Positions 60,881-61,186 of a DNA stretch of 64,000 bases are shown here, piece by piece. Location of the stretch: assembly GCF_003334765.1 (NCBI RefSeq), contig NZ_QOWT01000004.1; one strand, 5' to 3'. This stretch comes from Escherichia coli. GTDB taxonomy: Bacteria; Pseudomonadota; Gammaproteobacteria; Enterobacterales; Enterobacteriaceae. The first letter of the stretch is position 1. Every line of letters starts with the position of its first letter. Position numbers and translations under genes: made by a program. The notes under the pieces are model-generated. The model was given only the letters and a program-made list of their open reading frames with translations. It was not told the origin of the DNA and searched no databases.

Positions 60881-61152
60881 ACAGGATGTTGAAAGGGAAA
60901 ATTCTGGGGCAAAAAAAGCCCGCCAGTTACGGCGGGAAACCTCATCCTATGGGAGAACAATGAATAATGAAATTGCGGGGTTATCATCTCCCAGTATATC
61001 CATACTAACAATAAGGTTATTTACTCAACCAGGCATAAACATTTTGTTTTGTGCGTGGGAACAGCCTTAAGGTGTAAAGGGGGAGGTGGAAATAGCAATG
61101 AGGAGTATCAGCAAGAATACTCGCCGCTTTACCACAACGTGGATGAGAGGGA

Positions 61153-61186
61153 TGAAAAACTCAAGGCAGAGATAACTCTGCCTTGA
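61153..61186 (-). terminator. Rho-independent terminator of minCDE operon
   Basis: Hairpin tcaaggcagag-ataa-ctctgccttga with T-run on the minus strand (plus-strand A-run 61155-61159). Confidence 0.7.

Follow-up and report, generated by a model that had tools for sequence, protein, structure and literature searches.

A conserved block behind the minE terminator of Escherichia coli as a candidate 3' module of an Hfq-binding RNA

Introduction

Why does a second terminator-like hairpin follow the terminator of minE, the final gene of the minCDE operon of Escherichia coli? The question was raised by a sequence-only reading of a 64,000-nucleotide stretch of E. coli K-12 DNA (the window), which noted a possible 36-codon open reading frame (ORF) between the two minus-strand hairpins and suggested that the distal one, which the minCDE operon alone would not explain, hints at an additional short transcription unit on either strand. 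All positions given here refer to the window, and the corresponding NC_000913.3 coordinate is the window position plus 1163067.

Both hairpins lie in a spacer of 371 bp (60841-61211), which is flanked by minE on the minus strand and by the ycgI pseudogene on the plus strand. What K-12 retains as ycgI (60398-60840, plus strand) is the C-terminal fragment, ~115 codons long, of an autotransporter. Some strains have this autotransporter gene intact (loci L091-L093; ~3.4 kb, ypjA, "adhesin-like autotransporter YpjA/EhaD"), and most others carry truncated or frameshifted versions of various kinds. The spacer itself carries no annotation in MG1655, nor in the matches listed among ~5,400 complete genomes annotated by PGAP.

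Results

Terminators of the minE-ycgI spacer

A hairpin scan of the region yields 5 terminator-like sites, compared with 1.1 +/- 1.1 in shuffled sequences, so the hairpins exceed the chance expectation. The features of the spacer are listed in Table 1.

Table 1. Coordinates of the features in and next to the minE-ycgI spacer
Feature	Position	Strand	Description
minE (minCDE) intrinsic terminator	61155..61187	-	12-bp stem 61187->61160, then U5 61159->61155 (hairpin scan)
Fast-evolving spacer between the two minus-strand terminators	60993..61154	.	Carries the ORF body and stop codon
36-codon ORF	60960..61070	+	ATG 60960; Shine-Dalgarno (SD) GGGAG 60951-60955 (4 nt before ATG); TAA 61068-61070
A/U-rich conserved stretch, upstream of the second terminator	60937..60992	-	5'-GGGAGAUGAUAACCCCGCAAUUUCAUUAUUCAUUGUUCUCCCAUAGGAUGAGGUUU-3'; candidate body or seed of an Hfq-bound RNA
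Second minus-strand intrinsic terminator	60911..60936	-	7-bp stem 60936->60919 (6 G-C pairs), C, U7 60917->60911 (hairpin scan)
ycgI (convergent autotransporter) terminator hairpin	60856..60880	+	CTGCGC-TTCG-GCGCAG followed by TTTTCGTTT; stem 60856-60871; read from the sequence and seen in the fold

The minE terminator, which the sequence-only reading had placed at 61161-61186, is found there, with a fold of -19.8 kcal/mol (z = -7.1). Strong Term-seq 3' ends at NC_000913.3 positions 1224224/1224225 on the minus strand, equivalent to 61157/61158, fall into its U-run (Adams et al. 2021, supplement). With both the hairpin and the mapped 3' end present, this is a working terminator in vivo. Its stem, GGCAGA..TCTGCC, is common to E. 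albertii, Salmonella, and Citrobacter.

The second minus-strand hairpin with a T-run, expected at 60911-60937, is likewise present. Its U-tail is the sole run of at least 7 A/T within the spacer +/-50 nt, and the terminator is also found in E. albertii, there with T8. No Term-seq 3' end is recorded at this hairpin (near 1223978) in LB at OD 0.4, LB at OD 2.0, or M63 (Adams et al. 2021), indicating that an RNA ending here would be rare or condition specific, with low or late-stationary expression. The only stem variant seen within E. coli is C60923T, found in one sub-lineage (L086, L087, and L095) whose A-run is also one A longer. In the stem of the minus strand, the substitution leaves a C.A mismatch, as opposed to a mere G.U wobble in the corresponding plus-strand hairpin.

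A plus-strand hairpin with a T-rich tail, absent from the earlier reading, directly follows the ycgI stop codon. The hairpin scan did not call this ycgI terminator, because the stem extension consumed the T-run. In E. albertii, an equivalent hairpin is called and the three-hairpin layout is kept.

A conserved block around the second terminator

The second terminator lies in a block of ~87 nt (60906-60992). When 13 E. coli lineages with identities of 89-100% are compared, only 6 of 87 sites in this block vary, against 23% and 31% of the sites in the adjoining stretches. The near-invariance is also seen with 11 more sequences. Between the two minus-strand terminators, the rest of the spacer evolves fast, with 17-31% of the sites variable and 10 indel columns in the same 13 lineages. 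K-12 and E. albertii share a stretch of 57 nt (60920-60976) without a single difference, in a spacer that is just 65% identical as a whole, and this stretch is the fourth longest identical run between them across the whole minC-to-ycgI region.

The block covers the U7/A7 run, the hairpin of the second terminator, and ~55 nt on the minE side of this hairpin. Viewed on the plus strand, these ~55 nt hold the SD, the ATG, and the first 11 codons of the ORF, whereas the ORF body lies outside the block in fast-evolving sequence. The conservation edge on the terminator side is at ~60906, about 5 nt past the U-run, close to the expected end of a minus-strand RNA. The block stays conserved where the ORF is frameshifted, and it is missing from about 2% of the complete E. 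coli genomes. This pattern of substitutions supports strong purifying selection on the block, which would be anchored by the second terminator.

Upstream of the terminator, the minus strand of the block contains the motif UUCUCCC..CAU, which is complementary to an SD sequence and a start codon (anti-SD/anti-AUG). Without the terminator, the predicted fold of the block is no more stable than shuffled sequences (z = -0.6 to -1.2), suggesting that much of the upstream stretch could be open for pairing; the predicted fold of the 87 nt includes one 7-bp helix, GGGAGAU/AUCUCCC. A conserved hairpin GGGAGA/TCTCCC sequestering the SD was considered and rejected, since the changes seen at 60988-60991 do not compensate one another consistently on the plus or the minus strand. 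The Rfam search, run at the gathering threshold and at E values up to 10, returned nothing meaningful, and in a duplex scan against the 259 start regions in the window the candidate seed performed no better than shuffled seeds.

Hfq association of RNA from the minE strand

Supplementary Table 1 of Bar et al. 2021, a re-tabulation of Hfq RIL-seq results from Melamed et al. 2016, includes an RNA entered as minE.ycgI.IGR. By the authors' convention, the upstream gene comes first in such names, which puts the RNA on the minE strand. In the second sheet of this table, taken as stationary phase from its position in the file, minE.ycgI.IGR is represented by 137 chimeric fragments with 5 distinct partners, which themselves have few interactions, and its SIC score of 0.8 corresponds to the second position in 100% of the chimeras. 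The same entry gives a longest U-tract of 7 and an sRNA score of 0.276, which is above the authors' cut-off of 0.1 and falls between RybB (0.29) and Spf (0.23). The exponential-phase sheet holds 12 fragments.

In vivo Hfq association is thus documented for RNA from the minE strand of the spacer. Since the tail of the second terminator is the sole 7-nt U run within the spacer +/-50 nt, the U-tract value of 7, by itself, would place the captured fragments next to the second terminator. That the Hfq-bound RNA ends at this terminator is therefore inferred, as are its 5' end, its biogenesis, and any base-pairing function.

A minus-strand RNA is also recorded in Hfq RIL-seq data from enteropathogenic E. 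coli (EPEC), where 22 chimeras link minE.ymgJ.IGR to ArcZ (odds ratio, 2710), with minE.ymgJ.IGR in the first position. Its position (EPEC NC_011601 1330963-1330975) corresponds to about 60628-60640 on the minus strand, antisense to the ycgI pseudogene and ~280 nt past the second terminator, indicating that minus-strand transcription continues or restarts beyond this terminator in EPEC. The Hfq-CLASH and TERMITe supplements contain nothing from the minE-ycgI spacer. The main texts searched mention neither an RNA nor a protein of the spacer and never name or discuss minE.ycgI.IGR, which is uncharacterised and so far just a computational candidate in a supplementary table.

Promoters and origin of the RNA

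The promoter scan finds no sigma-70-like promoter with 9/12 consensus matches. The best minus-strand candidates under permissive settings are an extended -10 element, TGTTAGTAT (61010->61002), and TATACT (60998->60993), which both score at the background level and both carry mutations in E. albertii and in a number of E. coli lineages. The latter was also considered as a sigma-S-type -10 element of an sRNA promoter and was dismissed, being unconserved, with key positions mutated in several lineages. As no promoter reaches the threshold and the candidates are unconserved and at the background level, read-through of the minE terminator with its five U residues, with termination or processing as the next step, is at least as likely a source of the RNA as an independent gene. 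The second terminator could then end a read-through transcript, a long-3'UTR isoform of minCDE.

The 36-codon frame on the plus strand

The ATG, the preceding GGGAG, the 36 codons, and the stop codon are all located as the sequence-only reading had described them (Table 1), and the predicted product is MNNEIAGLSSPSISILTIRLFTQPGINILFCAWEQP. An ORF with an ATG start and at least 36 codons on either strand is found in 64% of Markov-1 random sequences of 371 nt with the same composition, so the ORF does not exceed the chance expectation.

Across the 13 E. coli lineages and E. albertii, the product has a length of 15, 36, 39, 44, 46, or 69 residues. K-12-like strains encode 36 residues, and the frame is open in E. 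albertii with 39 residues. In the clade with 15 residues, a G to T change in the SD is combined with a 1-nt deletion in codon 7, and this frameshift allele is found, exact over 80 nt, in 556/5426 complete genomes (about 10%). B2-like strains carry a 1-nt insertion near codon 32, resulting in 44-69 residues with an altered C-terminus.

Conservation of the frame and its synonymous substitutions had been proposed as a check, and the outcome gives no support for a coding function: there is no significant synonymous excess, and large E. coli clades carry a disrupted or changed frame. Against E. albertii, pN/pS is 0.45 (9.5 synonymous and 14.5 non-synonymous; p = 0.08-0.39, not significant). Within E. 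coli, the ratio ranges, on small counts, from 0.12 to 0.9 and is for some pairs below those of the other two plus-strand frames. The comparison of K-12 with B2-like strains gives 5 synonymous and 2 non-synonymous substitutions (p = 0.008-0.04 before multiple-test correction, again on small counts). In simulations with 24 substitutions, the frame stays open in 44% of the cases.

The ORF does not yield a match in the Pfam and NCBIfam searches. When the longest ORF variant was compared with 5.8 billion proteins, the matches were confined to Escherichia/Shigella, and in these variants the downstream part is read in all three frames. The ORF is missing from the ribosome-profiling small-ORF supplement of Stringer et al. 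2021, is unannotated in MG1655 and by PGAP, and on 10 independent contigs no gene is called there. For the plus strand, neither a promoter (scan) nor a 3' end (Term-seq, three conditions) was found for the ORF, and its SD can be sequestered in a predicted hairpin. The peptide has a GRAVY of 0.44, and its hydropathy windows indicate no transmembrane-like segment, with the best 19-residue window reaching 1.38 and containing Arg, Pro, Gly, Gln, and Asn. An old UTI89 annotation places a hypothetical gene, C1358, in the minE-ycgI spacer, presumably as an automatic call. No promoter, transcript evidence, family, relatives beyond Escherichia/Shigella, or entry in the small-ORF table was found for the frame as a plus-strand protein gene, and it is probably not a gene.

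In a filamentation screen with a UTI89 expression library, the enrichment around minCDE reaches the minE-ycgI spacer (UTI89 1,297,038-1,299,321); its authors note that the enrichment of the spacer may merely reflect linkage to minC.

Evolution of the region downstream of minE

A BLAST comparison against 80 Enterobacteriaceae minE loci finds the spacer in Escherichia only, where it exists in E. coli and E. albertii. The loci compared downstream of minE include L003 and L005 (3265-3745), L007 (3265-3474), and L002 (3265-3640). In Salmonella and Citrobacter, unrelated genes follow the homologous minE terminator. E. whittamii and a divergent "E. coli" have a different minE terminator and pass straight to ymgI/ymgG. 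Escherichia sp. MOD1-EC7003 shares with K-12 only the minE-proximal ~150 nt of the spacer, and E. albertii shares only the distal part, the minE-proximal part being replaced by ~100 nt of A+T-rich sequence. Judged by these comparisons, the region downstream of minE is a rearrangement hot spot within Escherichia, with a young and mosaic spacer. The BLAST search of the spacer against phage records gave no match, and the search against plasmid records matched 13 E. coli records only, several of them chromosome sized.

A 10-nt direct repeat, TGAATAATGA, is found inside ycgI (60665-60674) and at the ORF start (60961-60970). The E. coli database proteins P0002 and P0006 (53 contigs) read "...VKVNN|EIAGLSS...", a junction that indicates a 296-bp deletion between the repeats, by which the ycgI terminator and the second minus-strand terminator were lost and ycgI was fused to the ORF.

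Discussion

With modest confidence, we favor the reading that the conserved block is the Hfq-binding 3' module of an RNA transcribed from the minE strand, either an sRNA or a long minCDE 3'UTR, and that the 36-codon ORF is most likely no gene. This 3' module, transcribed in the direction of minE, would be made up of the hairpin at 60919-60936, its U7 tail, and the ~55 nt that precede the hairpin on the minus strand. It might belong to an sRNA of roughly 75-90 nt or might close a minCDE isoform with a long 3'UTR, an isoform that would arise by read-through of the minE terminator and would perhaps be trimmed by RNase E. Hfq would bind the G+C-rich hairpin with its 7-U tail and the UUU in front of it, and the single-stranded A/U-rich stretch with UUCUCCC...CAU may pair with the translation-initiation regions of target mRNAs. 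The plus-strand GGGAG and ATG are the complement of this anti-SD/anti-AUG motif, behind which the frame enters unconstrained spacer. The additional transcription unit proposed from the sequence finds support on the minus strand, for which an RNA 3' end beyond the minCDE mRNA, a conserved block, and an Hfq-bound RNA with a 7-U tract in the RIL-seq tables can be named, and is not supported on the plus strand, where the ORF would have been its gene.

A more far-reaching version of this reading, which we offer as a tentative possibility, is an Escherichia-specific Hfq sRNA behind the minE terminator, produced either through read-through with subsequent processing or by a weak promoter active in stationary phase, with an anti-SD/anti-AUG seed that represses mRNAs in trans. 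Such an RNA would couple minCDE transcription to the post-transcriptional control of other genes, and the antisense ORF would perhaps be a second, lineage-variable output.

Alternatively, the second hairpin could be a back-up (tandem) terminator, stopping minE read-through that would run antisense into the convergent autotransporter gene, with the Hfq signal being incidental to a U-rich 3' end and without any function in trans. We consider this doubtful, but it has several points in its favor. The minE terminator tail of just five U residues makes some read-through plausible, there is no conserved promoter between the two minus-strand terminators, and in EPEC minus-strand RNA is found even past the second one, antisense to ycgI. 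As in tandem terminators at convergent gene pairs, two same-strand terminators stand ~240 nt apart and face a convergent one, a layout kept in E. albertii. A back-up function accounts for the hairpin and the U-run, but not for the ~55 equally invariant nucleotides upstream, which hold most of the 57-nt run identical in E. albertii. The capture of the RNA on Hfq also differs from what such terminators offer, and the second position in all chimeras with five low-interaction partners is typical of a regulator, not of a passive 3' end. The block could also be a functionless relic of the rearrangement that put the autotransporter gene beside minE, its conservation reflecting a locally low mutation rate or recent recombination. 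The mosaic spacer is indeed found in E. coli and E. albertii only, E. whittamii-like genomes pass from minE to ymgI/ymgG without the block, about 2% of the E. coli genomes do without it, and the 296-bp deletion removes it in some strains. The sharp contrast with both flanks, within E. coli as well as between species, and the independent experimental Hfq association argue against a relic, which we regard as unlikely.

The two remaining alternatives give the ORF a role. The case for a real, translated small-protein gene includes an SD 4 nt before the ATG, the conservation of the SD, the ATG, and the first 11 codons, the 39 open codons in E. albertii, pN/pS values of 0.12-0.9 with the uncorrected excess of synonymous changes between K-12 and B2-like strains (5 against 2), and the UTI89 gene C1358. 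It is outweighed, in our judgment, and a small-protein gene appears very unlikely: an ORF of this size is a chance occurrence in 64% of the random sequences and its frame survives in 44% of the simulations, 556 of the 5426 genomes carry the allele with the changed SD and the frameshift in codon 7, B2-like strains carry the insertion at codon 32, the database relatives use all three frames, and the ratio of 0.45 against E. albertii is not significant. In addition, the ORF has no plus-strand promoter, 3' end, Pfam or NCBIfam match, entry in Stringer et al. 2021, or annotation in MG1655 or by PGAP, its SD is sequestrable, and the 10 contigs have no gene call. Least probable of all, and barely credible to us, is a type I toxin-antitoxin-like pair, in which the Hfq-bound RNA of the minus strand would act in cis as an antisense antitoxin, covering both the SD and the start of a toxic peptide encoded on the plus strand. 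As in SymR/symE and Sok/mok-hok, a short terminator-ended RNA would be exactly antisense to the SD, the ATG, and the first codons of a small ORF, Hfq association is documented, and the ORF is inactivated in a lineage-specific manner. Real type I loci also show lineage-specific inactivation. The peptide, unlike those of the known loci, is neither hydrophobic nor toxin-like (best window 1.38), and it has no toxin-family match in NCBIfam or Pfam; there is no plus-strand promoter for a toxin, the locus is single copy, and the RNA block remains intact where the ORF is frameshifted, as is often the case.

Returning to the proposed Hfq-binding 3' module, its closest functional parallel is the group of Hfq sRNAs that derive from 3'UTRs or intergenic regions and are known from RIL-seq, such as CpxQ, SdhX, FliX, MalH, and AllZ/FadZ (Bar et al. 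2021), an analogy that makes it a candidate member of this group. Like these sRNAs, it lies on the same strand downstream of a protein-coding operon, ends in a G+C-rich terminator that is followed by at least 7 U and preceded by U-rich single-stranded sequence, and has a conserved RNA body in surroundings that are not conserved. In the RIL-seq tables, the spacer RNA is also second in Hfq chimeras, with several mRNA-like partners and a score above the threshold. Unlike these sRNAs, the element stands behind a first, efficient terminator and is thus not at the normal mRNA 3' end, and the candidate RNA is not detected by Term-seq in three conditions and is limited to E. coli and E. albertii.

The locus shows that an SD and ATG signal can be the complement of a putative sRNA anti-SD seed, and small-ORF predictions beside terminators therefore need a strand check. 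If the second hairpin is a mere back-up terminator, the locus is an ordinary one. If the RNA is a working sRNA, it would be a functional RNA located past a first terminator, where annotation and screens for 3'UTR-derived sRNAs tend not to look, and the bacterium that has been studied best would gain an uncharacterised regulator encoded directly downstream of the operon for Min cell division.
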